In this document: piece by piece, positions 1 to 64,000 of the stretch
Layout: every line of letters starts with the position of its first letter
Numbering within the stretch: position 1 is the stretch's first letter
Source of the DNA: Phormidesmis sp.
Lineage (GTDB): Bacteria; Cyanobacteriota; Cyanobacteriia; Leptolyngbyales; Leptolyngbyaceae
Direction of reading: 5' to 3'
Length of the DNA stretch: 64,000 nt
Assembly (NCBI GenBank): GCA_965248535.1
Contig: CBDFJR010000002.1
Span: 1,056,001-1,120,000 of the forward strand
Program-made: the position numbers and the translations under genes
Notes under the pieces: generated by a model
Told to the model about the DNA's origin: nothing
The model's database searches: none
Seen by the model: only the letters and a program-made list of their open reading frames with translations

Positions 1-102
1 GCCGCTATATCTAGCAACTGGCTTGGCAAAGCGTTCCAAATCGCTTCCTAAAGTTTCTCGATCGCCATTTCGTCAACGATTCCTCCTCACCCCAACAAAA
101 CT

Positions 103-303
103 ATGAATTACCAAGAGCAACTGACTCCCTGGGCTGTCTATCAAACTCTGCCTGATCTTCAGCGTCAATTGGTTATTCGCTTTCGCCGTCGCACCGATGC
201 TGATTGTTATATCAAGGTGTTGAAGCAAACCCGTCCTCAAACTGATTTTGTGATCGCTTTTGAGACGGTTAAGAAAGAAGTTGTTCCCGCTGCGATCGCT
301 TAA
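103..303 (+). CDS. small conserved cyanobacterial hypothetical protein (66 aa)
   Basis: ATG ORF; PW...RFRRRxDA..Y...L...P...F.I.F pattern recalled from small cyanobacterial hypotheticals. Confidence 0.7.
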   Translation: MNYQEQLTPWAVYQTLPDLQRQLVIRFRRRTDADCYIKVLKQTRPQTDFVIAFETVKKEVVPAAIA

Positions 304-377
304 CTCGACTCTAAGGATCATGAGTTGATGACTGTCGGCCATTTGCACTAAACAGGGTCAGACCAAAGCTAGCTTTT

Positions 378-1574
378 ATGGTGAACGATTTACCCGATCG
401 CACGTCTGACCTTTGCGATGTGATTACTCAACAAATTCTCCACAGTTCCGAAGGTCGAATTTCATTTTCTGAGTATATGGAGATGGCACTCTACCATCCG
501 CAGCACGGTTATTATGCTGCCAATAGCGACAAGATTGGGGCGCACGGTGATTTTGTCACCTCGCCCCATTTAGCTATGGATTTTGGTGAGCTATTGGCTC
601 AACAGTTTGCAGAAATGTGGCAGCTTTTAGGGCAACCCCAACCCTTTACAATCGTTGAAATCGGAGCCGGACAAGGACTCTTAGCCGCAGATGTTTTGCG
701 GGGTTTGCAAAGTCAGCATCCCGATTGTTTCACCGCGTTAGACTATGTGATTGTTGAAAAAGCCGCCGCTTTGATAACAGAGCAAAAGCAGCGACTAGAT
801 CCTTGGCGGGCATCAGGGTTGCAGATCGAGTGGCGATCGCTCGACAGCATTCCTGCCCAATCAATTATTGGGTGCATATTCTCTAATGAATTGGTCGATG
901 CGTTTCCGGTGCATCTAGTAACACTGAGTCAGGGCAAACTCCAAGAAATTTACGTCACTATCCAGTCCGATAGATTTGCAGAAGTGATCGACGACCCTTC
1001 AGACGATCGGTTGACTAACTATTTTGATCTCAACAGAATTAATTTATTTTCAGCCGATTATCCAGATGGTTACCGAACTGAGGTCAACTTAGCGGCCCTA
1101 GATTGGCTAAGTTTGGTCTCCGATCGCCTCCAGCGCGGCTATCTGTTGACGATCGATTATGGTTACACCGCGACTCGCTACTATAGCCCTCGGCGATCGC
1201 AGGGAACCTTGCAGTGCTACTACCAGCACAGTCACCACAACAATCCTTATATCAATGTGGGTCAGCAAGACATCACGGCTCACGTTGACTTCACCGCACT
1301 AGAGCGACAGGGCGATCGCTGTGGCTTAAAAACTTTAGGCTTGACCCAGCAAGGACTATTTTTAATGGCGTTGGGGTTGGGCGATCGGCTGATGGCACTC
1401 AGTCAAAGCGAGACTAAAAATGCTCAAGACATTCAAACCGTGATTCGTCGTCGTGACGCACTTCACCAACTCATGAACCCGATGGGACTCGGTAACTTTG
1501 GCGTTTTGCTGCAAAGCAAGGGCTTGACCGCCACAGAAACCGCGCAGCCTTTGACGGGTTTACGAACGTTTTAG
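378..1574 (+). CDS. class I SAM-dependent methyltransferase, MidA/NDUFAF7 family
   Basis: YMEMALYHPQHGYY, GDFVTSP, EIGAGQG, SNELVDAFPVH, IDYG, QDITAHVDFT motifs. Confidence 0.93.
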   Translation: MVNDLPDRTSDLCDVITQQILHSSEGRISFSEYMEMALYHPQHGYYAANSDKIGAHGDFVTSPHLAMDFGELLAQQFAEMWQLLGQPQPFTIVEIGAGQGLLAADVLRGLQSQHPDCFTALDYVIVEKAAALITEQKQRLDPWRASGLQIEWRSLDSIPAQSIIGCIFSNELVDAFPVHLVTLSQGKLQEIYVTIQSDRFAEVIDDPSDDRLTNYFDLNRINLFSADYPDGYRTEVNLAALDWLSLVSDRLQRGYLLTIDYGYTATRYYSPRRSQGTLQCYYQHSHHNNPYINVGQQDITAHVDFTALERQGDRCGLKTLGLTQQGLFLMALGLGDRLMALSQSETKNAQDIQTVIRRRDALHQLMNPMGLGNFGVLLQSKGLTATETAQPLTGLRTF

Positions 1575-47710: not shown

Positions 47711-47872
47711 AAGAATATTCTACGGTTGCTTGTTTGCAAAAACGCTTCACCTATCGGTCGATTGGTGAATCAGAGCGCAGCGATCGCGCCACTGTCCATC
47801 AACTATCAAGCCCCTGTATTATCTATTTGGCGAGCTACATAATTAGTGGGACGGGGTTTTTTAAAAGACACG

Positions 47873-50623: not shown

Positions 50624-50644
50624 AATTTTGGCTTCAGTCTCAGA

Positions 50645-51760
50645 TCAGGATTTCTGCTTTCGAGCCGTGATATCTCTAACAACTCCTTCATAAAACAGCA
50701 AGTCTCCCCGCGCATCATGCACCTTGCGGACTGTCTCAGCGATCCAGATAACGCTGCCATCTTTGCGATAGACCTGCGAATCAAAATCAGAGACGGTTTC
50801 CTGCTGTTCTAAACAGGCAACAAACTCCTCTCGTCGCTGCGGTTGCACATAAAGCTGTTGAGCAATGTTATTAATCGTTTGGATCAAATCGTCAGGAGAC
50901 GCATATCCATAAATTCGAGCTAAGGCTGGGTTTGCATTCAAATACATGCCATCACGAGTGGTTTGAAAGATGCCGTCGATAGCGTTCTCAAAGATGCTGT
51001 GATAGTTTGCTTCTGCGTTTCTACAGTCCTGAATACTTTGCTCTAACCTAATATTTTGCTCTTCTAATCTTTTTTGCAGCATCCGAATATTTAGCTGATG
51101 CTCAACTCGTGCTAGCACCTCTTCCATTTGAAACGGTTTAGGAATGTAGTCCGTTCCCCCCACTTCAAAAGCTTTTACTTTGTCGAGCGAGTTATTGAGG
51201 GTGCTGATAAAAATGACTGGAATCTCACGTGTTAAAGTGTTGGCTTTAAGACGACCACAGACTTGATAGCCATCTAGACCTGGCATCATGATGTCGAGCA
51301 AAATCAGGTCGGGTTTTAGTTCGATCGCGGTAGGCAAGGCCGCGATGCTACTGGTTGCATGACCCACTTCATAGCCGTGCTTAGACAATGCAGCCGAAAG
51401 AAGACGCACATTTAGGCAAGCATCATCCACAATCAAGATCGTGCCACGATGAGTAGATTCGCGCAGCTTAAACCCTAATAGCCAAAAGATAGTTTGTTCG
51501 GCATTTCTCAGTTCTTGACGATGTTTAGCTCCCTGGGTGGTTAAAGCTTGATGAAGAACTGCCAAATGCTCTAGCCGCTCGATCGCTGCATTCACTTTCT
51601 GGTCTTCTAAATACAAGCTTTCGATCACTGCATTTAAATCGCTCAAAGAATCTGCCTTGAGTCCAGCTCCTGTGGCAATTACAGAGCTTATTTGATCAAG
51701 GTTTTGGTGCAACAGTTTTCGGATTTGATAGCTTGTAGCCAGCGAAAGTTGTTTCCGCAT
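50645..51760 (-). CDS. REC-PAS/PAC protein without output domain
   Basis: LLDIMMPGLDG, DYIPKPF, IFENAIDGIFQ, RKDGSVIWI, RDIT then stop. Confidence 0.88.
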   Translation of the reverse strand: MRKQLSLATSYQIRKLLHQNLDQISSVIATGAGLKADSLSDLNAVIESLYLEDQKVNAAIERLEHLAVLHQALTTQGAKHRQELRNAEQTIFWLLGFKLRESTHRGTILIVDDACLNVRLLSAALSKHGYEVGHATSSIAALPTAIELKPDLILLDIMMPGLDGYQVCGRLKANTLTREIPVIFISTLNNSLDKVKAFEVGGTDYIPKPFQMEEVLARVEHQLNIRMLQKRLEEQNIRLEQSIQDCRNAEANYHSIFENAIDGIFQTTRDGMYLNANPALARIYGYASPDDLIQTINNIAQQLYVQPQRREEFVACLEQQETVSDFDSQVYRKDGSVIWIAETVRKVHDARGDLLFYEGVVRDITARKQKS

Positions 51761-51821
51761 AAGCTGAATAAGTATTAATTTAAAGTCTCAATTGAGTGTT
51801 CCCGTGAGCAAAATAAACGCA

Positions 51822-52238
51822 TTAAATTCTGTCAGAGCTTAAGATTTGCTGAACCGCGGACTTCAGGTGGTCATATTCCAATTTGAGCAATAAAAACTTC
51901 TCGTTACAGGTTTCGGTAGATTCTAGCTGCACACTGATTTCTAGATCTTGACAAGCGCGAGAAAATCGAATCGCACCAAAAGCAGAACTACTGAACTTTA
52001 AACTGCTTGCAAGTTTCCGAGCTTCATCCACTTCACCAAGGTCGATCGCGTGCCCAATAGCCTGTAAAAGACTAGAAAATTCGGCAAGATAATGATCTGT
52101 AAATTCAGACAAAACTTTTGTCGAGTTTTCACCGCTAACGTGTTTCAAAAACCTCAAGACATTGGGAACCAAGATGAGTAAATCTAAGTGCGGAGGGCTG
52201 ACTACAGGTTTAGAATTGCCGTCTAAAGAATCCAACAT
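51822..52238 (-). CDS. Hpt-like protein lacking the phospho-His
   Basis: ARKLASSLKFSSSAFGA..FS..C..LE versus canonical AHxLKGSS. Confidence 0.75.
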   Translation of the reverse strand: MLDSLDGNSKPVVSPPHLDLLILVPNVLRFLKHVSGENSTKVLSEFTDHYLAEFSSLLQAIGHAIDLGEVDEARKLASSLKFSSSAFGAIRFSRACQDLEISVQLESTETCNEKFLLLKLEYDHLKSAVQQILSSDRI

Positions 52239-52286: not shown

Positions 52287-55200
52287 TTAATCAACTTTTG
52301 CACGGAATCGGAAGAAGCCGTAAGAGGATGCCGGGACGCTATTCACCGACTGGACGGCTCCAACTTGCAGATGCACTGCACCACGACTGTTGTTAGTGCC
52401 AGTGCAACTGCTGGGAAACGTCGTTGGGAAAAAGCCGCTTCCTGCACCAGAACCTGGGCCATCAGTGATCGGAGTTGTTGTGCCATTAAAGTTAAGCTGA
52501 ATTGAGCCACTCACAAAGGTTTGCTTGTTAGGCACAAAGTCACAAAGGTCAACCCCGCCTGCCGTCATTGCACCATCTGACAGAAAGTAAATCGTGTATT
52601 CAACTTCATCACTAGGAGCAGGTGCACCGGGAGTCGGGGTGGGCACTTGAGCCGTATTGATTGCGCCTAAAAGATAGCTGCTGCTGCCACCAGGCCAATT
52701 TACCCCTGGGTTGTCGTTGTTGTCGGTGGCTAAATTGTTATACCCGGCGATCGCTGTGACTGTTCCGCTACCATTCTTTTTGATGCCAGTAATCCGTTTA
52801 ACTAACCGTAATCGTGGGCCGATGTTAGTCAGGGTGGGATCACCCACAGCAGGGGTGCCGGGATCGTTACTGAGCAGATTGGCGAAGCCTGCACTAGTAA
52901 TCATTGCTTGGTTGGAAAGCTGTGTCGTGCCGCTAGGAGTCACAGGATCTTTAATGGTAACCCGGAACTTAACCGTGGTCGTGTTGTTCGCGGCAGCAGT
53001 TCCTAGAGTCCCTCCGGCTGTGCCGTTGGCACCTGTTCCTAGCCGGAACACAACCTGCGAAGCGCTCGCCTCAGCCTGATCGTCTGCACTCGCATCTGTT
53101 TTGGTACCAGCATTGGCTCCGGCGGAGATCTGCAATGAGCCTGGAAGATAAATAGTGTTGGTAGGAATAGGATCGGTCAGTACCACGCTATTAACTGAAG
53201 TCGTAGTGCTCGTGTTTTTAACAACTAGGGTGTACTCTAGAATATCTCCAGGGGTTGCCACCTGACTAGCAAGCGGAGTGGCTCCACCCGATCCGTCACT
53301 ATCCACCGCGACCACTGCTGTTTTATCGACTTGCAGAGGGCTAGCGGGCGCGATCGTCACGTCTTCTGCCTTGTTAGCTGCCACGGTGCCATCGTAGCTG
53401 GAGGTCAATGCGGCAGCGTTCACATTGACCGTTGTCACATTTGCGCTAGCATTGGTATATTTGGCATCGGCTGTCGCACTGTTGTTATAGGTTGCAGAAG
53501 CGGTGCCGCTCGCGATTGTGACCGTAAAGGTAACAGAAACACTTCCGCCAGGTGGAATCGTAAACCCTGACCAAGAGGGCTTAGAAGTAGTTCCTGCGGT
53601 TGTCACAGAAGCGGGCCCTGTGGCCCCCCCTGAATAGACTGGGGTGACTGTACCTGAACTATTGGTGAACCCAGTGGGCAATCCTGCGTCAGCAATGACG
53701 ACATTCTGAGCGGTGGGCCGTTTTGCCCCGATCGGGTTACTAGCGGTAATCGTGTAAGTCGCTGTCCCTGGGGCAGCCATTGGGCCGGGAGTTGACGTTG
53801 ATTTAGTTGCAGCGATCGTGCATCCTGCTCCTGAAATGCTAGTCACTGCGTCTGTAGCTGTCGAGTTAACCGGGCCCGCTACTCCATTGCCTGCGGTCGC
53901 ACCACCAAAATTCGTCGAGTCATTCAGCGTCGTCCCTGATTGCCCCCCATTCAGAACAGTTGTTGCACCGGGACTGTAGTAAACTACCCCCCCAGCACCG
54001 CCGCCGCCGGGACCGTGGGGAGCGCCACCGCCAGTGTTCGTCCCCCCCTTGCCGCCATTGGCACTAACGGTAAGTCCGGCAGTGCTACCCGTTTGTGAAA
54101 TAACCAGAACACTTCCGCCCGCGCCGCCGCCGCCACTGCCATCGTTATCAGGAATCAACGCTGGGGTGGCACCATTGGCACTAATAGTCCCTGCGGTCGC
54201 GATCGTGCCTGTCCGCAGCAAGACGATACCACCCCCAGGCGCACCGCTACTGGCTAACCCGTTACCTGGGGTGCCAGTTCCGTTATTCGTATTACCTGCG
54301 CCTCCACCACCCCCCAGAACTAGGCGGCTAGCAGACGCTGGAAAAGGGGCACCACCATCGCCACCGAGTGGTAGCGCACTATTCCAGGTTCTACCACCTT
54401 TACCGCCCAGTCCTCCATTACCGCCGCCCGCGCCGCCCGCGTTTTCGTCGTTAGCAGAGGGATTTCCATCCACAGCCCCGCCCCCTGCGTTTCCAGGTGC
54501 GCCGCGGCCATAGCTGCCGTTTGGGTAACCTTCTGTTGCATTGGTGATTAATGTGTTTGCGGTAGGATCGAACAAATATTTGGGCGTACCTGCCGTTCCT
54601 TCACCCTTGGAACCGTTGTTGGCACGAGTAGAAACAGAAACGACATCTGCATTACTTCCAGCACCCCCTCCTAACTGAACACCACCACCGCCTCGAAAGC
54701 CTTGACCATTGACGTTGATTTGTCCCCCGCTGAAGGAGATCGCACCTGCAACGTCCATTGCGACTACCCCTCCCGTGGTTCCATCCCAGGGGATCGCTGA
54801 TATGGTGCCGCTAACCGTCAAATTGCCATACTGCGGCACCCGAATCACCTGAAACCGCCTTTGTCCTTGACTACTGCCCCCTGTATTGTTAGCAGTAACG
54901 TAGCTGTTAACCAGAGGTGAACTAATATTGATAGTACCACCACTGGCTGCAACAGCGTTAGTAGCCACCACATACTCAAAGTTCCCAGCAGTAAAATTAG
55001 AGGCGAGGTTGCCATTGACGGTGCCGTTAGCAGCGTAGGGAGCCGCAGTTGATCCATTGTTAGTAGAACTGCCATCCCCGTAGGCGGCAGTGTTCGTCGC
55101 GTCAATGTCTGCTCCCTGCATTTGGATAACTAGCAGCAAGTCGCCGGGTTTGATTGAGGTTGAAAATCCTTTTGCAGTGCCTACAGCAATGCTGGTCGTC

Positions 55201-55466
55201 CCGGCAGCAGCACTGGTTCCGGTTGCACTGGGAAAATAGGTATTGACCTGCCCTGTAGGTGCTGTATAGTTGCCGTCTTGACCTGGGACGGCACAAATTG
55301 CATTGCCACTGCCATCTACTTTATCGGCGCTAGCAGGCGAAGTAAAAAGCCAGAGATTTTGAGACGACAGTAACACAGTAGCAGCCAACAGTGGACTGAT
55401 TCTGCGAATTGACCGCGACCAGAATCGTGAATGTTTAAGGTGAAGAGCAGTTAAATTACGTTTCAT
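52287..55466 (-). CDS. large secreted Gly-rich adhesin-like protein with three DUF11-type domains (putative tip subunit)
   Basis: signal peptide ending SPASA; Gly-rich N-region; ATKS..IADAGLP..YNNSA, VDKT..LTDPIP..LSNQA, LVKR..LCDFVP..FRAKVD*. Confidence 0.85.
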   Translation of the reverse strand: MKRNLTALHLKHSRFWSRSIRRISPLLAATVLLSSQNLWLFTSPASADKVDGSGNAICAVPGQDGNYTAPTGQVNTYFPSATGTSAAAGTTSIAVGTAKGFSTSIKPGDLLLVIQMQGADIDATNTAAYGDGSSTNNGSTAAPYAANGTVNGNLASNFTAGNFEYVVATNAVAASGGTINISSPLVNSYVTANNTGGSSQGQRRFQVIRVPQYGNLTVSGTISAIPWDGTTGGVVAMDVAGAISFSGGQINVNGQGFRGGGGVQLGGGAGSNADVVSVSTRANNGSKGEGTAGTPKYLFDPTANTLITNATEGYPNGSYGRGAPGNAGGGAVDGNPSANDENAGGAGGGNGGLGGKGGRTWNSALPLGGDGGAPFPASASRLVLGGGGGAGNTNNGTGTPGNGLASSGAPGGGIVLLRTGTIATAGTISANGATPALIPDNDGSGGGGAGGSVLVISQTGSTAGLTVSANGGKGGTNTGGGAPHGPGGGGAGGVVYYSPGATTVLNGGQSGTTLNDSTNFGGATAGNGVAGPVNSTATDAVTSISGAGCTIAATKSTSTPGPMAAPGTATYTITASNPIGAKRPTAQNVVIADAGLPTGFTNSSGTVTPVYSGGATGPASVTTAGTTSKPSWSGFTIPPGGSVSVTFTVTIASGTASATYNNSATADAKYTNASANVTTVNVNAAALTSSYDGTVAANKAEDVTIAPASPLQVDKTAVVAVDSDGSGGATPLASQVATPGDILEYTLVVKNTSTTTSVNSVVLTDPIPTNTIYLPGSLQISAGANAGTKTDASADDQAEASASQVVFRLGTGANGTAGGTLGTAAANNTTTVKFRVTIKDPVTPSGTTQLSNQAMITSAGFANLLSNDPGTPAVGDPTLTNIGPRLRLVKRITGIKKNGSGTVTAIAGYNNLATDNNDNPGVNWPGGSSSYLLGAINTAQVPTPTPGAPAPSDEVEYTIYFLSDGAMTAGGVDLCDFVPNKQTFVSGSIQLNFNGTTTPITDGPGSGAGSGFFPTTFPSSCTGTNNSRGAVHLQVGAVQSVNSVPASSYGFFRFRAKVD

Positions 55467-58400
55467 GGAGTTACACCTTCAGCAACGGGGGAACTTGAGG
55501 GGGCGATCGTGACAGCAGCAGATTCTGGTTTAGATTTGCGATCGGAGGAGGTCGGTTTTTGTAGCCCAAACCCGCTGAATAGCTCATTGAGTTTGATGGT
55601 TAGACCTAAGTAAGGCCCGCCTGCCGATCGAGAGCCGTCGAAGTCACGATCGTTGGCTCGACCAAAGCTATAACCTGCTGCTAGTCGAAGATTGGGGGTG
55701 AGATAATAGCCCGCTTCGACCACAAATCCGGTTTCGCGATATCCAGCACTGGGTTGAGCAATCCACCGAGCTTCTCCGACAATATCCCAGCTATAGCCAA
55801 AGCGATAAGTGGCGCGGAGTTGGGCTAAAGACACCGTGCTGGTGCCGACTAAATCACTAGAGAGCGTCGTCGAGCTGTGGCGCAGCGCATATTTGCCGTA
55901 AAATTCCCAGCGCCAATTAGGAGCATAGATGCCTTCGATCGCTAGCGTGTGGTCTTCTGAACCTGTGCCACTGCCGAACAGAATCGTATCAGGAATCGTT
56001 GAGGGGTTCTTGCGATATTCATAGCGAAACAGGGCATTGAAGCGATCGTCGTTGGGATCTCGGTAGGCAAGTCCGACTTTGAGACTGGAGGTATCACCCA
56101 ACCCTGTCAGTGTTTGGTTAGCAGCGTTAGCCTGCTGATAGCGCACCAGCGCTGTGAGCGAGGGTGAAATTTTGCCCGTTGCGGCAGCCGAAATTACCGT
56201 GTTGCTGCCGCTTGATGAACTGCGGTGTTCATATCGGGCGCTTGCTTGGAAGTCTTTGCTTCCCGTATATTCCAGCCCAACACTGTAGCTATCGCCGCCC
56301 TGCAAACCGAGAGAAGAAGCACTCTGTCCGACTGCAAAGGGTTGAGCAAATTGAACCCCCGCCCCGGTGCGGCCAAAGAACCCGCCGAACAGATGTTCAT
56401 AAGCTAGATCCATTCTCAGTCCGGGGGAGATTGTCCAACCCTGGTTAACCCCAATCGCGCCTTGAGTTGTCCAGCTATCGGCTCCACCCACGATGCCATA
56501 ACGGGCGTGTAGAGTCGTGTCTGTCCCAAATTTGTATTCTCCGCGCAGATCTAAATTGGTAATAGACTGTCCAGCTAGCTGCCCACGCGTATAAAACTGT
56601 TGACTCAAACCGAGGTTGACTCCAGGCATAATTGCCCAATCTAGTCCTAGCCCGGTGCGATCGCTATAGACAGAATCAACACTTGAAGAAAGCGTCGTTT
56701 CATTCTGCGCTAGAAAGGTGAGGCTATTGCTCAGAGGCACCGTGAAGCGCGATCTCAATTGATTGGAGGAACCGCTTGAATCGGGTGATAGTCGATCTTG
56801 ACGATCGCGATGGAGTAAATCGACGTTCAGGTCAGCCTTTCCAATTCGCTGCTGCACCCCGACCGCGATCGTGGTCAGCGAGTTATCGACCCGACTACCC
56901 GGAATGGCTTCAGTCCGAGGAGCAAAGAGGTCTCGTAACGTGTCAATCTGTCGAGGTGCCGTGCCGACGTTCTTTTCGCGGTCATATTGCACTCTCAGTT
57001 TGGTGCTGTCGGAAAGGATGCCTACGACCTCTGCCCCATAGCGCGTTTGTCCAGGCACAAAACTAACGGTGGCATCATTAGCAAATCCTGTATCGGTCTT
57101 GCGATAATAGCCTCGTGCCAGAATACCTGTTGTGATCTCGGCGTTGGCTTCTAACCGATAGGCAGAGCCGCTTACCGAGCCGAGAATATCCGATCGATTG
57201 TTAGAACGAGCATATTCAGCAACAATGCTGCCTTTGCCAAACGAGTAGAGAGCATCCGCACCGTACAGTTCAAAGTTTCGCGTTCCCTGATTTTCTTTGA
57301 GATAGGTGGCACCAATCCAGCTTTCTGTGCCTGGGGTGTCAGACAGATGATAGAGCGCTCGACCTGCATAGATATTGCTCTTGCTTCCCTGCTGAGTCTC
57401 GTATTGATAGGTCGTAACAATTCGACGAACTAACACCTGCCCAGTGAAATCGACATCCGTTCGCAAAATCGGTTGCCGGAAAAGGATTGTGCCCCGATCG
57501 TAATCAATCTCATAATCAGTACCGCGATTTAACTGCTTGCGCTCCAAAACAGTTCCAGGGCGGTTTAATTCCTCAACTTCTAAGAAGACATTTTCACTGC
57601 CGCCAATCACTAACCGTCGCGAGAGGAAGTAATAGCCGCTCGTGCCATCTGGCGCTAGCGTATCGCGCTGAAACCCCTGCACATTGTTGCCATAAAAGCC
57701 ACTGAGTTGGAGATTACCAACATTGTAGTTAGCCTTGAACCCATGAAGTTGCCGAGTCGTTGCCGTAAACTGCTGAGATCGGGTGGCAAATTCTTTAGTG
57801 TCATAGTCACCCCACATGAAATAGTCGATGCCATTCGAGCTAGGCGATGTGCGCTCTAGTTTGAGGAAAACGCTATCCGTCGAGGGAGTCAGAACCTCTG
57901 TTTTAGAACTATCGCCATAGACTGGATAGTTTTGATCGCAGAATTGCTGTTCACGAAACAGTCGCGAGGTGCCATCACAGGTTTGATTGAGAGCATGATC
58001 ACTGTTGTAGGCACCTGTTACAAGCCAATCGCCCACTTTTCCCGTGGCAAACACTGCGCCGTGCGTCGCTAGCCCGTAATTATTTTTGCCATTAGGCGGC
58101 AAAAAGTCTCGAAAGCTGCGATAGAAGTCTGTGCCACCCTTACCCAGGCGAAAATCGATCGAACCTGTCACCAGCGAAGAACGCAAATCGGTTTCAAACT
58201 GGACTTGAGTAAACGCATCTAAATCCTCAGCCTTTGCCTGAATTCGCACTGTTTGAGCTTGGATGCCAGATCGTAGCGTTGCCTTAAATTCGCCCTGGCT
58301 AGCTTTGACTTGATAGCCTGGCTGATCAGGGTTGAAGTCCGGTTCGACAAATTCGCCCGCCGTGGGCTTGAGGGTCACGATCGTATCGCGATTTGAGCGG

Positions 58401-59017
58401 TTGCCGTTAGCATCCAACAACTCACCCAAAACCGTCACTGTCGATCGACCATCAGCCCGAACTCGCGTTTCAGCCGTGCGAAGGGTGATTTGCTTTGCCG
58501 TTCCGCGGACTTGTACCTGCACCGATGCCGTTTGGGTCACTTGACCGTTGACGACGATTTGAGCCACGATCGTGTTGTCGCCATCCTGAAGCGGAACACC
58601 ATACCAGGTCTGAGTCGTTTGCTTCTTAGTTTTATCTTTTTCAGTCCGTCCGACGAGAGAAACACTCACCGATTTACCGTTTACCTGTAGCTCCACCTGA
58701 CTATCTAGAGGAAACCGAAGCACCACCGTTGCCGCCGGGACATCAACCACCGCTTTAGGCGTGGGTGAGACGATCGTGATACCTGCCGATGGATTTGTTG
58801 GTAAAGGTGTTACTGCCGGTTGGGAGACAGGTTTTGATTCTGGTTTAACAGTCGGTTGCCTTGGTGAAACTGATTGCACGATCGGAGTTGTTTCCGTTTC
58901 TGTGATCGCTGCCATCACGCCTCTGATCGGCATCAGCAATGCAAAACTGATACTTTCAGCAATCAGTCCTAAACCCAGTAGACAAGCAGCTATGGAATTT
59001 CGAGATTTCATGTTCAT
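55463..59017 (-). CDS. large outer-membrane beta-barrel protein with N-terminal Ig-like domains (putative usher/anchor)
   Basis: signal peptide; Ig-like ADGRSTV region; YPVYGDSS, DYEIDYDRG; long run of amphipathic beta strands ending YLGLTIKL. Confidence 0.85.
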   Translation of the reverse strand: MNMKSRNSIAACLLGLGLIAESISFALLMPIRGVMAAITETETTPIVQSVSPRQPTVKPESKPVSQPAVTPLPTNPSAGITIVSPTPKAVVDVPAATVVLRFPLDSQVELQVNGKSVSVSLVGRTEKDKTKKQTTQTWYGVPLQDGDNTIVAQIVVNGQVTQTASVQVQVRGTAKQITLRTAETRVRADGRSTVTVLGELLDANGNRSNRDTIVTLKPTAGEFVEPDFNPDQPGYQVKASQGEFKATLRSGIQAQTVRIQAKAEDLDAFTQVQFETDLRSSLVTGSIDFRLGKGGTDFYRSFRDFLPPNGKNNYGLATHGAVFATGKVGDWLVTGAYNSDHALNQTCDGTSRLFREQQFCDQNYPVYGDSSKTEVLTPSTDSVFLKLERTSPSSNGIDYFMWGDYDTKEFATRSQQFTATTRQLHGFKANYNVGNLQLSGFYGNNVQGFQRDTLAPDGTSGYYFLSRRLVIGGSENVFLEVEELNRPGTVLERKQLNRGTDYEIDYDRGTILFRQPILRTDVDFTGQVLVRRIVTTYQYETQQGSKSNIYAGRALYHLSDTPGTESWIGATYLKENQGTRNFELYGADALYSFGKGSIVAEYARSNNRSDILGSVSGSAYRLEANAEITTGILARGYYRKTDTGFANDATVSFVPGQTRYGAEVVGILSDSTKLRVQYDREKNVGTAPRQIDTLRDLFAPRTEAIPGSRVDNSLTTIAVGVQQRIGKADLNVDLLHRDRQDRLSPDSSGSSNQLRSRFTVPLSNSLTFLAQNETTLSSSVDSVYSDRTGLGLDWAIMPGVNLGLSQQFYTRGQLAGQSITNLDLRGEYKFGTDTTLHARYGIVGGADSWTTQGAIGVNQGWTISPGLRMDLAYEHLFGGFFGRTGAGVQFAQPFAVGQSASSLGLQGGDSYSVGLEYTGSKDFQASARYEHRSSSSGSNTVISAAATGKISPSLTALVRYQQANAANQTLTGLGDTSSLKVGLAYRDPNDDRFNALFRYEYRKNPSTIPDTILFGSGTGSEDHTLAIEGIYAPNWRWEFYGKYALRHSSTTLSSDLVGTSTVSLAQLRATYRFGYSWDIVGEARWIAQPSAGYRETGFVVEAGYYLTPNLRLAAGYSFGRANDRDFDGSRSAGGPYLGLTIKLNELFSGFGLQKPTSSDRKSKPESAAVTIAPSSSPVAEGVTP

Positions 59018-60465
59018 GGTTTGCCTGCTTCTGAAACGGCGGGCGTGACAGCAAAATTCATTCGCACCAGTCCATTGGGTTCGAGGTGCACCAGTCGAGA
59101 TTGGCTATTGCGTTCTTTGAAATAGAGATTGGGGGCAAAGGTGTAGCCGGGAACACTGCTGAGATCGAGGACTCCAGTTCGACTGCCTGGCAGGACATTG
59201 GCGATCGAGAACAGCCCATTTGGATCGGTGGTGATGCGAGTGCCATCATCTAAAAGCACGACTGCATTTGGAATTCCAGGTTCTCCAGGCTGCTGTTCCC
59301 CATCGAAATTTTTGTCGTCAAATACGCGACCGATGATGGTTCCACAATCCGATACAATGCCGGGACGAATCCGTAGCCGATATTTAGACGGCCCATCTCG
59401 AAGAATGGCGTTAGTATCGATGCGATGAACGCTAACGCTAGCCAGATTTTCACCCGTGCCCCTCACCGAATCAGGACTGAGTTGTACAGCATAAGCAACG
59501 TTTAAGACTCCATCAGGAGGAATGCTGCCGTCAAACCTAAACGTGATGGCAGAACCACTATGAGTGGTTGCGATCGCGACCACATTTCCTCCTAACTCAC
59601 CACGCACGCTCTTAGGCAAAAAGCTGAACCCTAAAGGCATTACATCCGCAATCTCAATCTGATTAGCCGCAACCGAGTTGAGATTTCGCACTGAGAGCCG
59701 ATAAATCACTGTATCGCCAGGCTCGGCAGAAGCCCGATCGGCCGTTTTGGTAATTTGAACAGGTTGAGCCGGGCCTACACAAATCGGCTGATCGAGCAAA
59801 CTCAGTGCAGAGAGCACTAATCCACTTCCGGCAGCATCATTAATAGCAACCGTTGTTGTGAAGGAAGCTGGGTCGGCATCTAAACCGATTCCTCGCCCGT
59901 CTAACGCAGTTGCAGTGTAGGAAATTGTTTTAGCAACATCATCGCGTGCAGTAATGACAAGCCGAATTTGTCGTTGGCTATAGCGTCTGGCACTCGCGGG
60001 CGGGTTCACAATGAGAATGTATCGCCTGCCAACGTCAATCTGCCCTGCGCTACGGTTCAAGAAAAAGTTATAGCCACCCTTAGGTTCGTCATTTGCCAAA
60101 AAGAAGGGATTGCTGTTTTGCACATTGGGAGACACACCCGTAAAACTGGTGCCAGCCCCAGTTCTTGGCAGAGGAAGCAGAGCCAGTGGTGTATCATCTT
60201 GGCTAGCTTGATAGAGAGCGACGCTGAATCCTGCATAGTCAGGCAAGACTTCTCCACCGCAGCCACGAATGCGCCCAAACGGGTCAACGATCTCTTGCTT
60301 CAGTGCATTTGTAATGCTGTCAAACGTATTTTTCTCAGCATCTTCAAATGTGTAGGAAGCCGTGTTAAGAATCGCGCTTTTTGCTGTAGCGGCTGAAGGC
60401 TGAAATGAAATGCTGGCAAGAAGCAACGCCGCCAACAAGCGACATCGTTTGCGGTGAGAAATCAT
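59014..60465 (-). CDS. secreted DUF11 + SdrD-B-like protein (putative base adaptor)
   Basis: signal peptide, ILNTASYTF, VQITKTADR..PGDTVIY..IADVMPLG..ENLA, GRVFDDKNFDGEQQPGEPGIP. Confidence 0.88.
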   Translation of the reverse strand: MISHRKRCRLLAALLLASISFQPSAATAKSAILNTASYTFEDAEKNTFDSITNALKQEIVDPFGRIRGCGGEVLPDYAGFSVALYQASQDDTPLALLPLPRTGAGTSFTGVSPNVQNSNPFFLANDEPKGGYNFFLNRSAGQIDVGRRYILIVNPPASARRYSQRQIRLVITARDDVAKTISYTATALDGRGIGLDADPASFTTTVAINDAAGSGLVLSALSLLDQPICVGPAQPVQITKTADRASAEPGDTVIYRLSVRNLNSVAANQIEIADVMPLGFSFLPKSVRGELGGNVVAIATTHSGSAITFRFDGSIPPDGVLNVAYAVQLSPDSVRGTGENLASVSVHRIDTNAILRDGPSKYRLRIRPGIVSDCGTIIGRVFDDKNFDGEQQPGEPGIPNAVVLLDDGTRITTDPNGLFSIANVLPGSRTGVLDLSSVPGYTFAPNLYFKERNSQSRLVHLEPNGLVRMNFAVTPAVSEAGKP

Positions 60466-60616: not shown

Positions 60617-61180
60617 TTAACGGATTTTGACTTGGTAAGCAGCACTCACACTTGCTTCAGGTTGCAGCGCTTGGCTGGTTTCCCACCGCACATGAGTGTA
60701 AGCCGCCGCCGGAGCGGGACGTTCTTCAACTTTGCCGTCTGGAAGCGTCACTTTCACGGTCGGGTGCGCCACAAACGTTTTGCCTTGGTCAAGACTGTAG
60801 GTGACAGTGATTCCCTGAGCGATCGTGGCAGAATCCAGTTGATAGCTCGTTCCTTGAGGAATGGGTTGAGTAATCGCAACGTTTTTCGCGTCACGACTGC
60901 CTTCGTTTTTACCCGTCACCGTGAACCGAATCACATCCCCTTGTTTTGCCTTGACTTTGCCGTCGATCGCTTGCCAGTTAGTTACCTCTTTACCCTGCTG
61001 GTTTTTTGTTACCACCTGCTGATCTGCCACCAGGTAGAGATTGACTTTGGGCTGACGCAGAACATTTTGAGCAATCGAAGACCCCGCGTTGAAAATCTGA
61101 GCGATCGCAGGTGAACCGTTGATCGGCAACGCTGAAACAACTAGTGCTGCGCTGACACTTAATAACCAATGTTTTTTCAT
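60617..61180 (-). CDS. small secreted single DUF11-like domain protein (putative chaperone/cap)
   Basis: MKKHWLL signal; QGDVIRFTV..KN.G..A.NVAITQPIPQGT.Y; YTHVRW; ends YQVKIR. Confidence 0.88.
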   Translation of the reverse strand: MKKHWLLSVSAALVVSALPINGSPAIAQIFNAGSSIAQNVLRQPKVNLYLVADQQVVTKNQQGKEVTNWQAIDGKVKAKQGDVIRFTVTGKNEGSRDAKNVAITQPIPQGTSYQLDSATIAQGITVTYSLDQGKTFVAHPTVKVTLPDGKVEERPAPAAAYTHVRWETSQALQPEASVSAAYQVKIR

Positions 61181-61267: not shown

Positions 61268-63811
61268 TTACTTGATCTTTCGCTGGAAGATGAACGTGCC
61301 ACCCGCAGAGCCAGGAGCAACCGATGTGACGGTGTCTTTATACTCCTGGATGTCAGTTGGAGTGCCGCTGGTTGTCACCGTGATAGCTCCACCCGCGTCA
61401 GTTGCAGAACCTGTCGCTGTGCCAGGGAACTTCGGATCAAGCGTTGGGCCAAACCAAGTGTTAGTACCCGTGCTGCCGTTCTCAGTAATCACCAAGCTGT
61501 TAGCAGGCAAGGTGACATTGTTAGTTCCACCGCTGGTTGAGATGTTTTTGTAGGTGATGCGATACTCAATCACCCTGCCAGGCGAGGCAGCCGCGCTCAG
61601 ATCAGCTTGTACCTTGGTGAAGGTGCCAGCAGCCCCTGTGACTGGCGTGACCCCATCGACTTCCAGGATTCGGGCTTCTTTATCCAACGTCAGATAGTTG
61701 GTGTAGAGGCGATCGATCGTAGTGTTGCTCGGATCACCCGTTGGGCTGCCATCCCCATTGACATCAACAAACGCGGTTACGGGAACTGGGAACCCTTGGA
61801 ACTGAGGTGCCGCAGGAAGATCAACTGTCACCTGATAATCTGCTGTCGCTCCGGCTGCGATCGTCAGTTTGACCGGGCTGGTGGCAGTTGGCGTAACTCC
61901 ACCCGTTCCAGCAGTGCCTGAGACGAAAGCAAAGCCGCCTGCTGAGGTGTAGTTATAAGTTGCACTGCCCGACACTGGGTTAGTGATCGTCACTTTTGTG
62001 TTGTCTAGCAGGGCAGTTGTCGTTGTTGGAGGAGTGGGTAATAGCGAGATGACCTGAGACCCACCGCTGGTGTTTTGAGCAGTGTTGTTAAAGGTGAACG
62101 GAGGTGTCTGAGCATCGGTCAACGGGGTTGTAGGCGATAGACCCACAGGAGTCACGATCGACTTGTTGGTGTAGTCATCATTGGTATCAGTTGGGCCCAC
62201 GGCAGCAGGCTTTGTCTGTGGCCCGTTTAGAGGAGTCGCCGCGATCGTATACACGGTGTCTTCACCACCTGCGGTCTTAGTACCTCCACCATCTACACCT
62301 GTGTTGGTGTTGGTAGTGTTCGTCGGATCAGTTCCCGTTCCTGGGTCAGTTCCATCATTTCCAGGGTTAGCCACCCCGTCGCTGATGCCACCAGCGTTTG
62401 TAGCTGTGCCGCCTGATCCTGGATCGGGGTTGTTTCCAGCTAAACCGTCGTTGGCGGTTTGGTCACCCGATTCATCATAGACAATCTGGGTTGAGGTTCC
62501 TGGTGTAATCGTGCCGGGTTGAGACTGACCAAAGACTTGAGCCAAGTTTGCAACTTGTCCGCCTCCAAACCCACTAACGGGGGTGAGGTCGAATTGGAAG
62601 CCAGAAACCGTTGTGCCAGTGCCCGCTGAACCTTTAGAAATTCCAGCAGAAGTGGTGTCTTTGATAAAACCAATTCGAGTGATTGCCGGGCCTGAGGTAG
62701 GACGAGTGGTGCTCCACGCTGCGCCCAAAGCACTGGTGGTCAGAGGTGTTTGAGAATAAACTACTTGCCAGCCAGCAGGAGCGGTGATGGTGTTGGTCGC
62801 GCCAAACTGTAAGCCAACCGGAACCGCGTCACTGACTAAGACATAAGGGGTAGCGGTGCTGCTGTTGACGTTCAGGCTGGTGCCATAGAGATCCGATGTG
62901 ACAAACCCAGCAGGAGGGCTTGAGGGATTTTCAACTCGCAGCGCTAGCTTATAGGTCAGAATGTCATCCGTTAAGATGTTGGGTGTAGAGTTGTTGCTAT
63001 AGCTGCTCACCGCTTTGAGCACGGCTGCAAACGATTGCAGTCTAGCAGCAACCACGATCGGGGTGCTGGTTGCCATTGCTTCTCGTACACCGTTGCTGGG
63101 CGCGGTTGCATTGGTTTCGCCACCGACTCCGTTTCCGTTGTCCACTGTGTAGACATCATTTGCATTGCTGCCACTTACCGCCCGATCGAGGTTTTGTCCA
63201 TCAACAGGGGTAGTGTTTCCTAGCGACACTTTTAGGGTGCTGGTTGCGGTTGCACTGGCTAAGACTTTAATAGGCACCCGAATGGTAACTGTTCCGGTGG
63301 TGCCTGTGCCTGGATTGGCAACCAATGACCCTGAGTTTGCGCCTGTTGTCCCTAGCAAGTTGCCAGTGGTGTCTCCAGCGTTGGGCACGTTGACCGCCGT
63401 TCCTAGGGTCGTGCCATTGACTGCGACAATTTGAATCTGCCCATTTTGCGAGAAGGCAGTTGTGTTAGAAAGAGTAGCCGTGCCTGGGATAAAGAATTGA
63501 GTCGGATCGTTGCCCGTGTTGGTGATAACGAAGTCTACAAATAAGGTGTCGCCTGCGTTGGGGTTGGAAACACTAGGAGTTTGAGCGGTCAGCGCTACGC
63601 CTGCCACTTCTAAAACGTCGATCGTGACTTCATTAGAGGTAGTGGTGTAGTTAGTGGTGCCATCGGTAAAGGTGCCAGTCGCCGTGTTTTTAATCGAGGT
63701 TCCGGCAGCAGTGCCGTTTGCCCAGACAGGAGAGACGAGTTGGAAAGCGCTTCCGATCGCAAGGGTCGCTGCTAGCAGGTGTCGCAAATGAGAGTGTGAA
63801 CAAGTTTTCAT
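61268..63811 (-). CDS. secreted Thr/Gly-rich beta-repeat protein with DUF11-type domains (putative major fibre subunit)
   Basis: signal ending SPVWA; GTAAGTSIKNTATGTF; ITNTGND; C-terminal LTLDKEA..PGRVIEYRITYKN..LVITENG..FIFQRKIK*. Confidence 0.88.
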   Translation of the reverse strand: MKTCSHSHLRHLLAATLAIGSAFQLVSPVWANGTAAGTSIKNTATGTFTDGTTNYTTTSNEVTIDVLEVAGVALTAQTPSVSNPNAGDTLFVDFVITNTGNDPTQFFIPGTATLSNTTAFSQNGQIQIVAVNGTTLGTAVNVPNAGDTTGNLLGTTGANSGSLVANPGTGTTGTVTIRVPIKVLASATATSTLKVSLGNTTPVDGQNLDRAVSGSNANDVYTVDNGNGVGGETNATAPSNGVREAMATSTPIVVAARLQSFAAVLKAVSSYSNNSTPNILTDDILTYKLALRVENPSSPPAGFVTSDLYGTSLNVNSSTATPYVLVSDAVPVGLQFGATNTITAPAGWQVVYSQTPLTTSALGAAWSTTRPTSGPAITRIGFIKDTTSAGISKGSAGTGTTVSGFQFDLTPVSGFGGGQVANLAQVFGQSQPGTITPGTSTQIVYDESGDQTANDGLAGNNPDPGSGGTATNAGGISDGVANPGNDGTDPGTGTDPTNTTNTNTGVDGGGTKTAGGEDTVYTIAATPLNGPQTKPAAVGPTDTNDDYTNKSIVTPVGLSPTTPLTDAQTPPFTFNNTAQNTSGGSQVISLLPTPPTTTTALLDNTKVTITNPVSGSATYNYTSAGGFAFVSGTAGTGGVTPTATSPVKLTIAAGATADYQVTVDLPAAPQFQGFPVPVTAFVDVNGDGSPTGDPSNTTIDRLYTNYLTLDKEARILEVDGVTPVTGAAGTFTKVQADLSAAASPGRVIEYRITYKNISTSGGTNNVTLPANSLVITENGSTGTNTWFGPTLDPKFPGTATGSATDAGGAITVTTSGTPTDIQEYKDTVTSVAPGSAGGTFIFQRKIK

Positions 63812-64000
63812 GTCGGGTAGCAAGAGTATTGACAATCAAAAGAGTGAATTTGTAATCAGTGATGAGATTGCTGCTTTAGTCGTCGTGCAATGAGAGTTAA
63901 GAATCTAATGGAAGATAGAGCGCTTCGAGAGAACAGATCCAGACGCAATAAAGGAGGGTCAATAGAACAAGCTAGTCTTGTTAAAATCACAGGCTCCTAA

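Follow-up and report, generated by a model that had tools for sequence, protein, structure and literature searches.

We analysed a 64,000-nucleotide stretch of the cyanobacterium Phormidesmis sp. (contig CBDFJR010000002.1, positions 1,056,001 to 1,120,000, hereafter the window) and identified a five-gene minus-strand cluster, A-B-C-D-E with gene A first, that probably encodes a surface fibre of composition E-(A)n-C held at the product of gene D. In this reading a hairpin at the N terminus of one protein would complete the last domain of the preceding protein, and the joint would be locked by a Lys711-Asn42 isopeptide bond formed through Glu777. Gene A would supply the repeating shaft piece, and the fibre would resemble a long adhesin of immunoglobulin (Ig) domains that has been cut inside a CnaA/CLIPPER-like domain. 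The parts of gene A that carry this proposal are the following.

61268..63811 (stop codon included), minus strand: gene A, a secreted putative shaft subunit of 847 amino acids read from the ATG at 63811
63719..63811, minus strand: signal peptide MKTCSHSHLRHLLAATLAIGSAFQLVSPVWA, residues 1-31, with predicted cleavage between VWA and NG from reading of the sequence
63614..63718, minus strand: candidate donor hairpin, residues 32-66 (NGTAAGTSIKNTATGTFTDG...TSNEVTIDV), made of the Asn strand and the final strand and delimited by conservation and by hhalign alignment to the N terminus of gene C
63686-63688, minus strand: codon of Asn42 (Asn50 in the longer reading frame described below), the proposed isopeptide Asn
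61271..61693, minus strand: candidate acceptor domain, residues 707-847, with Lys711, Glu777 and Glu749, ending FIFQRKIK-stop and lacking an Asn strand
61679-61681, minus strand: codon of Lys711 (Lys719 in the longer reading frame), the proposed isopeptide Lys
61481-61483, minus strand: codon of Glu777 (LVITENG), the proposed catalytic acid, which aligns to the catalytic-position Asp of the gene C DUF11 domain

A preliminary description of the window had pointed to an orphan Asn strand at the N terminus of this protein and a C-terminal Lys domain lacking that strand. It used an open reading frame (ORF) at 61268..63835 on the minus strand, 855 amino acids long and starting with a TTG at 63835, eight codons upstream of the ATG; the ATG at 63811 is the likely true start, and residue numbers here equal the ORF numbers minus 8. 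A script check found the Asn and the Lys at the codons which that description gave, together with the Glu of its LVITENG, and found PGRVIEYRITYKN in gene A and FIFQRKIK-stop at the C terminus of the protein. We counted conservation across 77 gene A family members of 37-82% identity. Residues I40, N42, S59, N60 and K711 are each present in 77/77, position 777 is acidic in all 77 (Glu in 73, Asp in 4), and Lys711 is the sole Lys kept in at least 95% of members within residues 690-847. The end of the protein is similarly fixed, with the stop codon exactly three residues past R844 in 67 of the 77 members. Seven further gene A variants keep both ends (7/7), and five of these, 550-613 amino acids long, lack the internal DUF7925 domain.

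The arrangement of these residues can be set beside that of known isopeptide domains. From Asn42 to the end of the hairpin there are ~24 residues, comparable with the 22 that separate N806 from the end of the domain in the CLIPPER structure 9IFR (PMC12617251). The isopeptide bond of CnaA-like domains links the first and penultimate strands. Alignment of profiles with hhalign placed the acceptor core (PGRVIEYRITYKN...LVITE) on the complete DUF11 domain of gene C with a probability of 69% (E value 4.3e-5, 30 columns), setting ITE on IAD. The gene A hairpin gave no significant match to complete domains, with E values of 0.12 against the gene C DUF11 domain and 0.064 against DUF7925, where Asn was aligned to Asn. 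In an AlphaFold2 model of gene A (mean predicted local distance difference test score, pLDDT, 82.1; predicted template modelling score, pTM, 0.60), residues 707-847 form six strands and one helix at pLDDT 87-95 except for one block at 68, and the hairpin region forms strands at 39-42, 45-49, 54-58 and 62-65 at pLDDT 62-79. Residues 1-32 fall below 50. In such a model, a docked hairpin would add two strands to the six-stranded acceptor; the CnaA-like sandwich of CLIPPER/DUF11 domains has nine strands.

We next examined how the two candidate halves are distributed over the remaining genes of the cluster, which are listed here in order.

60617..61180, minus strand: gene B, a secreted, DUF11-like and acceptor-like protein of 187 amino acids ending YQVKIR-stop (Pfam DUF11, E value 1.2e-7)
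59014..60465, minus strand: gene C, a putative base or anchor of 483 amino acids with a hairpin, a CnaB-like region, a complete DUF11/CLIPPER domain and an SdrD_B-like domain
60277..60384, minus strand: candidate donor hairpin of gene C, residues 28-63 (AKSAILNTASYTFED...), with the Asn34 codon at 60364-60366, identified by hhalign alignment to the gene A hairpin
55463..59017, minus strand: gene D, 1184 amino acids, with one or more N-terminal Ig-like domains (weak Big_1/Invasin_D3 hits) and a putative giant outer-membrane beta-barrel
52287..55466, minus strand: gene E, a putative tip adhesin of 1059 amino acids with an AgmC_N-like region, two complete DUF11 repeats and a C-terminal acceptor
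52290..52811, minus strand: candidate acceptor of gene E, residues 886-1059 (LRLVK890RIT, DEVEYTIYF, LCD976FVP), ending FFRFRAKVD-stop

Genes C and D, and likewise D and E, overlap by 4 bases each, and of the 65 loci with at least 6 kilobases (kb) of downstream flank, 62 preserve the colinear A-B-C-D order. The strict hairpin motif occurs within the first 110 residues in 72/79 gene A and 58/75 gene C homologues and in no homologue of B (0/75), D (0/68) or E (0/39). The hairpins of A and C are homologous (hhalign 93%, E value 2.8e-7). Asn34 of gene C is kept in 63 of 68 homologues, the other five being longer proteins, one of them with a donor-like motif near its start, and the complete domain that gene C carries has its own triad, K240/D274/N340, conserved in 68/68 at each position. 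The acceptor of gene E, conversely, stands in a protein without a hairpin: it keeps the Lys and the Asp in 36/36 homologues and the Glu of the EY motif in 35/36, all 36 end four residues past the Arg, and it aligns to a complete DUF11 domain with an hhalign probability of 87% (E value 4.1e-6), although its Pfam DUF11 match (E value 0.0027) is below the cut-off. Gene E is conserved between loci in the last ~175 residues only, across ORF lengths of 669-1228 amino acids, as expected of a tip adhesin. An additional Glu recurs in acceptors: Glu749 of gene A (window 61565-61567), the extra Glu of an (I/V)EY strand, is kept in 74/77 members and has its equivalent in DEVEYTIYF of gene E (35/36), while the position is Ile in the complete DUF11 domain of gene C and Arg-Phe in gene B. 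Glu749 may be a second catalytic or docking residue. Two Nostoc metagenome-assembled genomes (L072 and L080) contain gene A homologues with no B, C or D match within 10 kb downstream, as orphan shaft genes.

The same genome contains a second, simpler arrangement of donor and acceptor.

G000:C2:~1204067-1214572 (L087 3567-14072), minus strand: second locus, ~90 kb from the operon

Its donor is a C-like protein of 335 amino acids in which a hairpin is followed directly by a complete DUF11 domain and then SdrD_B, and its acceptor is a 1238-amino-acid SdrD_B-repeat protein with an E-type acceptor at its end. The remainder comprises a 1220-amino-acid gene D paralogue (59% identity) and a 707-amino-acid beta-helix/OmpA protein, with no A or B homologue at the locus. 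At this locus the donor and the acceptor are carried by different proteins, so that neither reactive half could pair with anything but the other. The hairpin also behaves as a module, preceding three different domain types in A, C and the 335-amino-acid paralogue. Because gene E has an acceptor without a hairpin, gene C a hairpin without an incomplete domain and the second locus only such a pair, docking in trans must exist within the system.

Five natural proteins present the two halves in a circularly permuted order, with acceptor and then hairpin in one chain of 991-2711 amino acids (P0309, P0311, P0313 and ORFs in genomes G230, locus L088, and G023, locus L089). Between the last strand of the acceptor and the Asn strand these cis forms have 6-8 residues, the length of the free N-terminal overhang of gene A. 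BLASTP comparison of gene A with P0313 placed residues 529-786 on 9-266 and residues 32-450 on 343-734 (high-scoring segment pairs with E values of 3e-44 and 4e-42), so that the first mature residue of gene A, residue 32, aligns to P0313 residue 343, directly behind the F.F.R.IV strand of P0313. The acid and the Asn are kept in 5/5 cis forms and the Lys in 3/5, the other two having Thr. Four cis-form segments compared with the gene C DUF11 domain by hhalign gave no significant match (probability 1%).

Covariation was computed from 298 gene A family members with an effective number of 208. The strongest pair joining the hairpin to a position elsewhere is F48-N705, and when all parallel and antiparallel registers of strand 38-50 were ranked (n=1021) the top register was antiparallel with i+j=753, which sets N42 opposite K711. 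Between genes, the gene C residue at Asn+6 (Phe or Tyr) tracks gene A residue 705, equivalent to Lys-6 (Asn or Gly), in 58 of 66 loci.

Conservation, cis forms and covariation on their own would fit docking within a molecule and between molecules alike, and it is the operon that appears to separate the two. If the hairpin instead completed the C-terminal domain of its own molecule, with or without a bond, gene A would encode a closed monomeric adhesin. Such a clasp is equally compatible with the conservation of the triad, with the cis forms and with covariation, and the gene A model leans the same way, its hairpin at pLDDT 62-79 and pTM of 0.60 comparing with a gene C hairpin that was modelled undocked at 33-50 in a protein that has no acceptor (DUF11 domain 85-94). 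A clasp of this kind nevertheless leaves the acceptor-only gene E, the donor-only gene C and the donor-acceptor pair of the second locus unaccounted for, and it requires a rod of four or five Ig-like domains to fold back on itself. The distribution of the genes bears on the same question. In a survey of 301 cyanobacterial genomes from 134 genera, gene A occurs in 33 genomes and 23 genera, in two of them (G023 and G230) solely as a giant cis-form ORF; B and D are present in 31/31 of the other gene A genomes and in 0/2 of the cis-form-only genomes, so that B and the putative barrel D accompany the split form. We therefore regard closure within one molecule as unlikely.

Several observations weigh against the proposed cross-linked fibre. 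The Thr found at the Lys position in two of five cis forms indicates that the domain can exist without a bond, and because the hairpin in cis forms also precedes domain 1, adjacency alone is not decisive about which domain it belongs to. The covariation signal is thin and comes mostly from one lineage: when the tree is built without them, the columns of the F48-N705 pair show 11 and 8 changes and change together on only 2 of 594 branches, one leading to a 98-sequence clade, and among the top 50 pairs by region the acceptor is not enriched (12 against 10.1 expected). Searching Pfam with the isolated gene A hairpin and acceptor returned nothing, for the acceptor at E<=10, and the acceptors of 23 family members gave 0/23 matches at E<=1, which suggests that the acceptor is too diverged for the Pfam DUF11 model. 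A profile of 33 acceptor domains found nothing related among PDB sequences (best E value 0.17, an unrelated protein), and the CnaA/CLIPPER nature of the acceptor is suggested by its motifs and the 30-column hhalign match at 69%. The DUF11 likeness put forward in the preliminary description is not confirmed by Pfam, and for the acceptor it is suggested by profile alignment. Finally, a structure search with the gene A model gave no row uniting hairpin and acceptor as a compact domain; its rows span residues 67-706 and barely cover the acceptor. A profile of full-length gene A likewise had no match among PDB sequences.

The first of these points raises the question of whether strands are exchanged without any covalent lock, in the manner of chaperone-usher pili, with the Lys, Asn and Glu serving packing or hydrogen bonding. 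Beyond the Thr-containing cis forms, this is the direction in which gene B points, since a protein of the same general build carries Leu instead of the Lys and Gln instead of the acid in 61/61 homologues and its fold does not need the reactive pair; BsaA oligomers, moreover, are described as stable in sodium dodecyl sulfate (SDS) even without the bond, in the portion of the preprint available (bioRxiv 10.1101/2024.11.04.621531). Yet the Lys, acid and Asn are complete in all 77 split gene A proteins and Lys and Asp in all 36 gene E acceptors, the pattern is that of autocatalytic isopeptide domains as set out in the accessible sections of PMC12617251, and complete domains within the same proteins retain triads of their own. 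A purely non-covalent joint is accordingly very unlikely in our estimate.

The Pfam results can be read in another way, in which nothing is complemented at all: the C-terminal domain would be complete, the N-terminal motif and the terminal F.F.R.IK motif would be export or targeting signals read by D or another factor, and gene A would be a monomeric fibrillar adhesin. Genes A, B and E do share an aromatic-x-aromatic-x-basic terminal strand, Pfam sees no truncated DUF11 in the C-terminal domain of A, and the acceptor is modelled at high confidence on its own. But the same motifs lie internally in the giant cis forms, where they cannot serve as terminal signals, the donor motif stands next to different domains in the proteins that share it, the residues that never vary make up an isopeptide triad, and the best covariation register sets N42 opposite K711. 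Little weight can be given to sorting signals as the explanation.

Returning to the cross-linked fibre, we propose the following sequence of events. After Sec export and cleavage of the signal peptide, hairpin 32-66 would fill the place of the two strands lacking in domain 707-847 of the preceding subunit, supplying the penultimate strand, with Asn42, and the last strand. Docking would bring Asn42 beside Lys711, with Glu777 and perhaps Glu749 as catalyst, and an autocatalytic Lys-Asn isopeptide bond would lock the joint. The chain would run from the tip protein E, which has an acceptor only, through n copies of A, each with donor and acceptor, to C, which has a donor only and which would stop growth and hold the fibre at the giant outer-membrane barrel D. 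Gene B would hold the A hairpin reversibly in the periplasm and so prevent early polymerisation; this decoy-acceptor chaperone is a guess, made because B travels with the only subunit able to polymerise with itself. The analysis shows the layout of gene A and its conservation, the operon, the cis forms and the absence of sortase, usher and PapD matches; from comparison of sequences we infer that docking occurs in trans and is sealed covalently, in what order and direction the fibre is built, and what B, C and D do. The head-to-tail joining through an intermolecular bond that the preliminary description had proposed thus gains support from conservation, the cis forms, the division of donor and acceptor within the operon, the second locus and covariation, with the bond itself and the trans docking of A still inferential. 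That description did not include two points, namely that the donor is a two-strand hairpin and that the subunit belongs to a system of tip, shaft, anchor and barrel. Whether the whole amounts to a further pilus class of diderm bacteria, in which separate tip, shaft and anchor proteins snap together at a barrel and lock autocatalytically without sortase, usher or adenosine triphosphate and with B as chaperone, is a more tentative suggestion, which we consider a real possibility and hold with some reserve.

Three further domains lie between the hairpin and the acceptor of gene A.

63044..63613, minus strand: domain 1, residues 67-256, a CnaA-like Ig domain with no Lys or acid, recognized by VIA-align comparison to BcpA
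62450..63031, minus strand: DUF7925 (PF25546) domain, residues 261-454, with triad K266/D328/N422, recognized by Pfam
61694..62242, minus strand: middle Ig-like domain, residues 524-706, recognized by middling VIA-align rows (524..707, Z 7.8-8.7)

In VIA-align comparison, domain 1 (model range 71..255) matched BcpA 3kpt_A with Z 9.5 and a root-mean-square deviation (rmsd) of 3.3 over 131 aligned residues, and extending this BcpA-type match back to residue 32, so that the hairpin is included, aligned 134 residues, a gain of only 3. The DUF7925 domain was matched by Pfam with an E value of 3.3e-56 (190.5 bits against a cut-off of 26.5, profile positions 1-183 of 185, ORF residues 269-462). The preliminary description had noted an internal domain with all three reactive elements, and this is that domain: K266 is kept in 74, D328 in 77 and N422 in 77 of 77 family members. 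DUF7925 was created in a 2025 survey of isopeptide domains, in the available text of which a Lys/Asp/Asn triad is predicted for the type protein (PMC12617251), and the gene A residues match that prediction. Model range 257..524 matched the CLIPPER structure 9ifr with Z 9.0 and rmsd 2.8 over 123/123 aligned residues. The short shaft variants P0321, P0330, P0337, P0349 and P0369 (550-613 amino acids) are without DUF7925 but retain the rest of the layout (hairpin, domain 1, middle domain, acceptor), which makes the internal, putatively cross-linked domain an optional insert.

Gene A occurs in a single copy in its own genome. Relatives number 470 proteins at E<=0.001 from 8000 scored candidates, and 1208 cluster representatives at E<=0.001, of which 391 reach E<=1e-30; where a pattern match was located in a species genome, 285 of 297 encode a relative. 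On these searches the gene A family is large and cyanobacterial. Upstream of gene A lie ~1.4 kb without a long ORF, followed by unrelated genes on the opposite strand. An Rfam search of the 2 kb upstream returned nothing at E<=0.1, and scans for promoters and terminators gave counts equal to or below those of shuffled sequences.

Among the partner proteins, gene B aligned to the gene C DUF11 domain with an hhalign probability of 96%, and for gene B the ESM Atlas returned only generic leads. Residues 229-367 of the gene C model matched 9ifr with Z 14.6 and rmsd 2.6 over 121/123 aligned residues. Gene C has an internal LPRTG at residue 99 (window 60169-60171 region); as it lies far from the C terminus and no membrane anchor follows, its likeness to the sortase motif is probably accidental. 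No C-terminal LPXTG was found in A, B, C or E, and the genome, which is 99.76% complete, contains no sortase (PF04203), usher (PF00577) or PapD_N (PF00345) match, the controls having been detected. Gene D may encode a giant barrel. Its C terminus has a strand like that of outer-membrane proteins followed by a tail, the ESM Atlas gave generic leads to outer-membrane families, some relatives carry PF10677, and NCBI names relatives 'TonB-dependent receptor', a name that is probably a generic call for a barrel. Pfam found no plug or receptor family in gene D, with weak N-terminal Ig-like hits only, and comparison with PDB sequences found nothing. Gene D is also present in 13 of the sampled genomes without gene A. 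Signalling genes adjoin the operon (47846-52238): a 925-amino-acid protein with several receiver domains, an Hpt and a GGDEF domain on the plus strand and, directly downstream of E on the minus strand, a 371-amino-acid receiver-PAS protein and a 138-amino-acid Hpt protein. Regulation of the fibre genes by these neighbours is possible.

If the proposal is correct, bacteria with an outer membrane build covalent fibres from pilin domains of Gram-positive type without sortase, by splitting a self-crosslinking domain, which would add a route of pilus assembly with an outer-membrane machine of its own and would explain the conserved operon in 31 of the 301 sampled cyanobacterial genomes. For cyanobacteria it would mean an as yet unstudied structure on the cell surface, with a possible role in adhesion, mats or gliding. 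The pairings of A into A, A into E and C into A would be natural tag and catcher pairs for protein ligation, with B possibly a reversible decoy.

In chaperone-usher pili such as Fim and Pap the tip offers a groove only, each shaft subunit has a groove as well as an N-terminal extension, growth stops with a final subunit, and the operon also encodes the outer-membrane platform. The cluster described here would have the same division into tip, shaft, terminator and outer-membrane platform. It differs from those pili in having no usher or PapD_N, in a two-strand donor whose Asn faces a Lys, in a joint that is probably covalent and in large multi-domain subunits. A related contrast holds for SpyTag/SpyCatcher, made by laboratory cutting of a CnaB-type domain: its peptide brings a single reactive residue, inserts as a strand and becomes linked spontaneously through an isopeptide bond. 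In the present system the cut would have arisen in nature, in a CnaA/CLIPPER-like domain, with a two-strand tag and polymerisation as the outcome.

The best structural matches are to sortase-assembled pilins of Gram-positive type (BcpA, SpaA/SpaD, RrgB, EbpB), with which the system shares CnaA and CnaB domains with internal triads and, as proposed, covalent joining. The gene C model matched BcpA 3rkp with a Foldseek E value of 4.7e-12, PilA 8wxd with Z 15.9 and SpaD 4hss with Z 15.4. Sortase pilins are joined by a Thr-Lys link made by the sortase, whereas the bond proposed here is autocatalytic and lies inside a domain made of two chains, and the host is a diderm. Of the CLIPPER (DUF11) and DUF7925 families, gene A contains a full DUF7925 and genes C and E full DUF11/CLIPPER domains. 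The first strand of such domains bears the Lys and the penultimate one the Asn, with an acid completing the set, and the proposed triad of gene A would follow this layout spread over two termini. The difference is that one domain per protein appears to be cut just before its Asn strand, while the accessible part of the survey treats CLIPPER and DUF7925 solely as intramolecular cross-links in single-chain adhesins (Protein Sci 2025, PMC12617251).

In its proposed working gene A is most like BsaA of Clostridium perfringens, a TasA-family protein whose 'donor-strand exchange and lock' is backed by modelling and by Ala substitutions (bioRxiv 10.1101/2024.11.04.621531). There, too, an N-terminal segment enters the sheet of the next subunit, and the joint is locked by a Lys-Asn isopeptide close to a Glu, which yields heat-resistant oligomers. 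BsaA, by the same text, is TasA-like, comes from a monoderm, depends on SipW and donates one strand. Gene A by contrast has an Ig/CnaA-like fold, a two-strand donor, a host with an outer membrane and a dedicated putative giant barrel, and an Asn strand that would be the missing part of an isopeptide-type domain, and a Pfam scan of A-E at E<=0.01 found no TasA-family domain. The archaeal thread protein Saci_0406 offers a second case of strand complementation by an N-terminal tail combined with a proposed intersubunit isopeptide, in which the N-terminal amino group of Asp24 is bonded to Asn57 in subunit n+2 (Nat Commun 2022, PMC9715654); its fold is different and its archaeal host has no outer membrane. 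We also considered the Microcystis tubular pilus (PMC12397347) and the Litorilinea DUF11 grappling-hook protein (bioRxiv 10.1101/2025.08.19.671072), which are different systems.

In the literature covered, mostly outside subscription journals, we found neither this operon nor an intermolecular use of DUF11 or DUF7925 described, and no case in which such a domain is naturally split. Set against these comparisons, the gene A system falls outside the BsaA/TasA fibres, the archaeal thread and the chaperone-usher and sortase pili, and appears as a strand-exchange fibre with an isopeptide lock, with a reasonable chance of forming a separate class of pilus.

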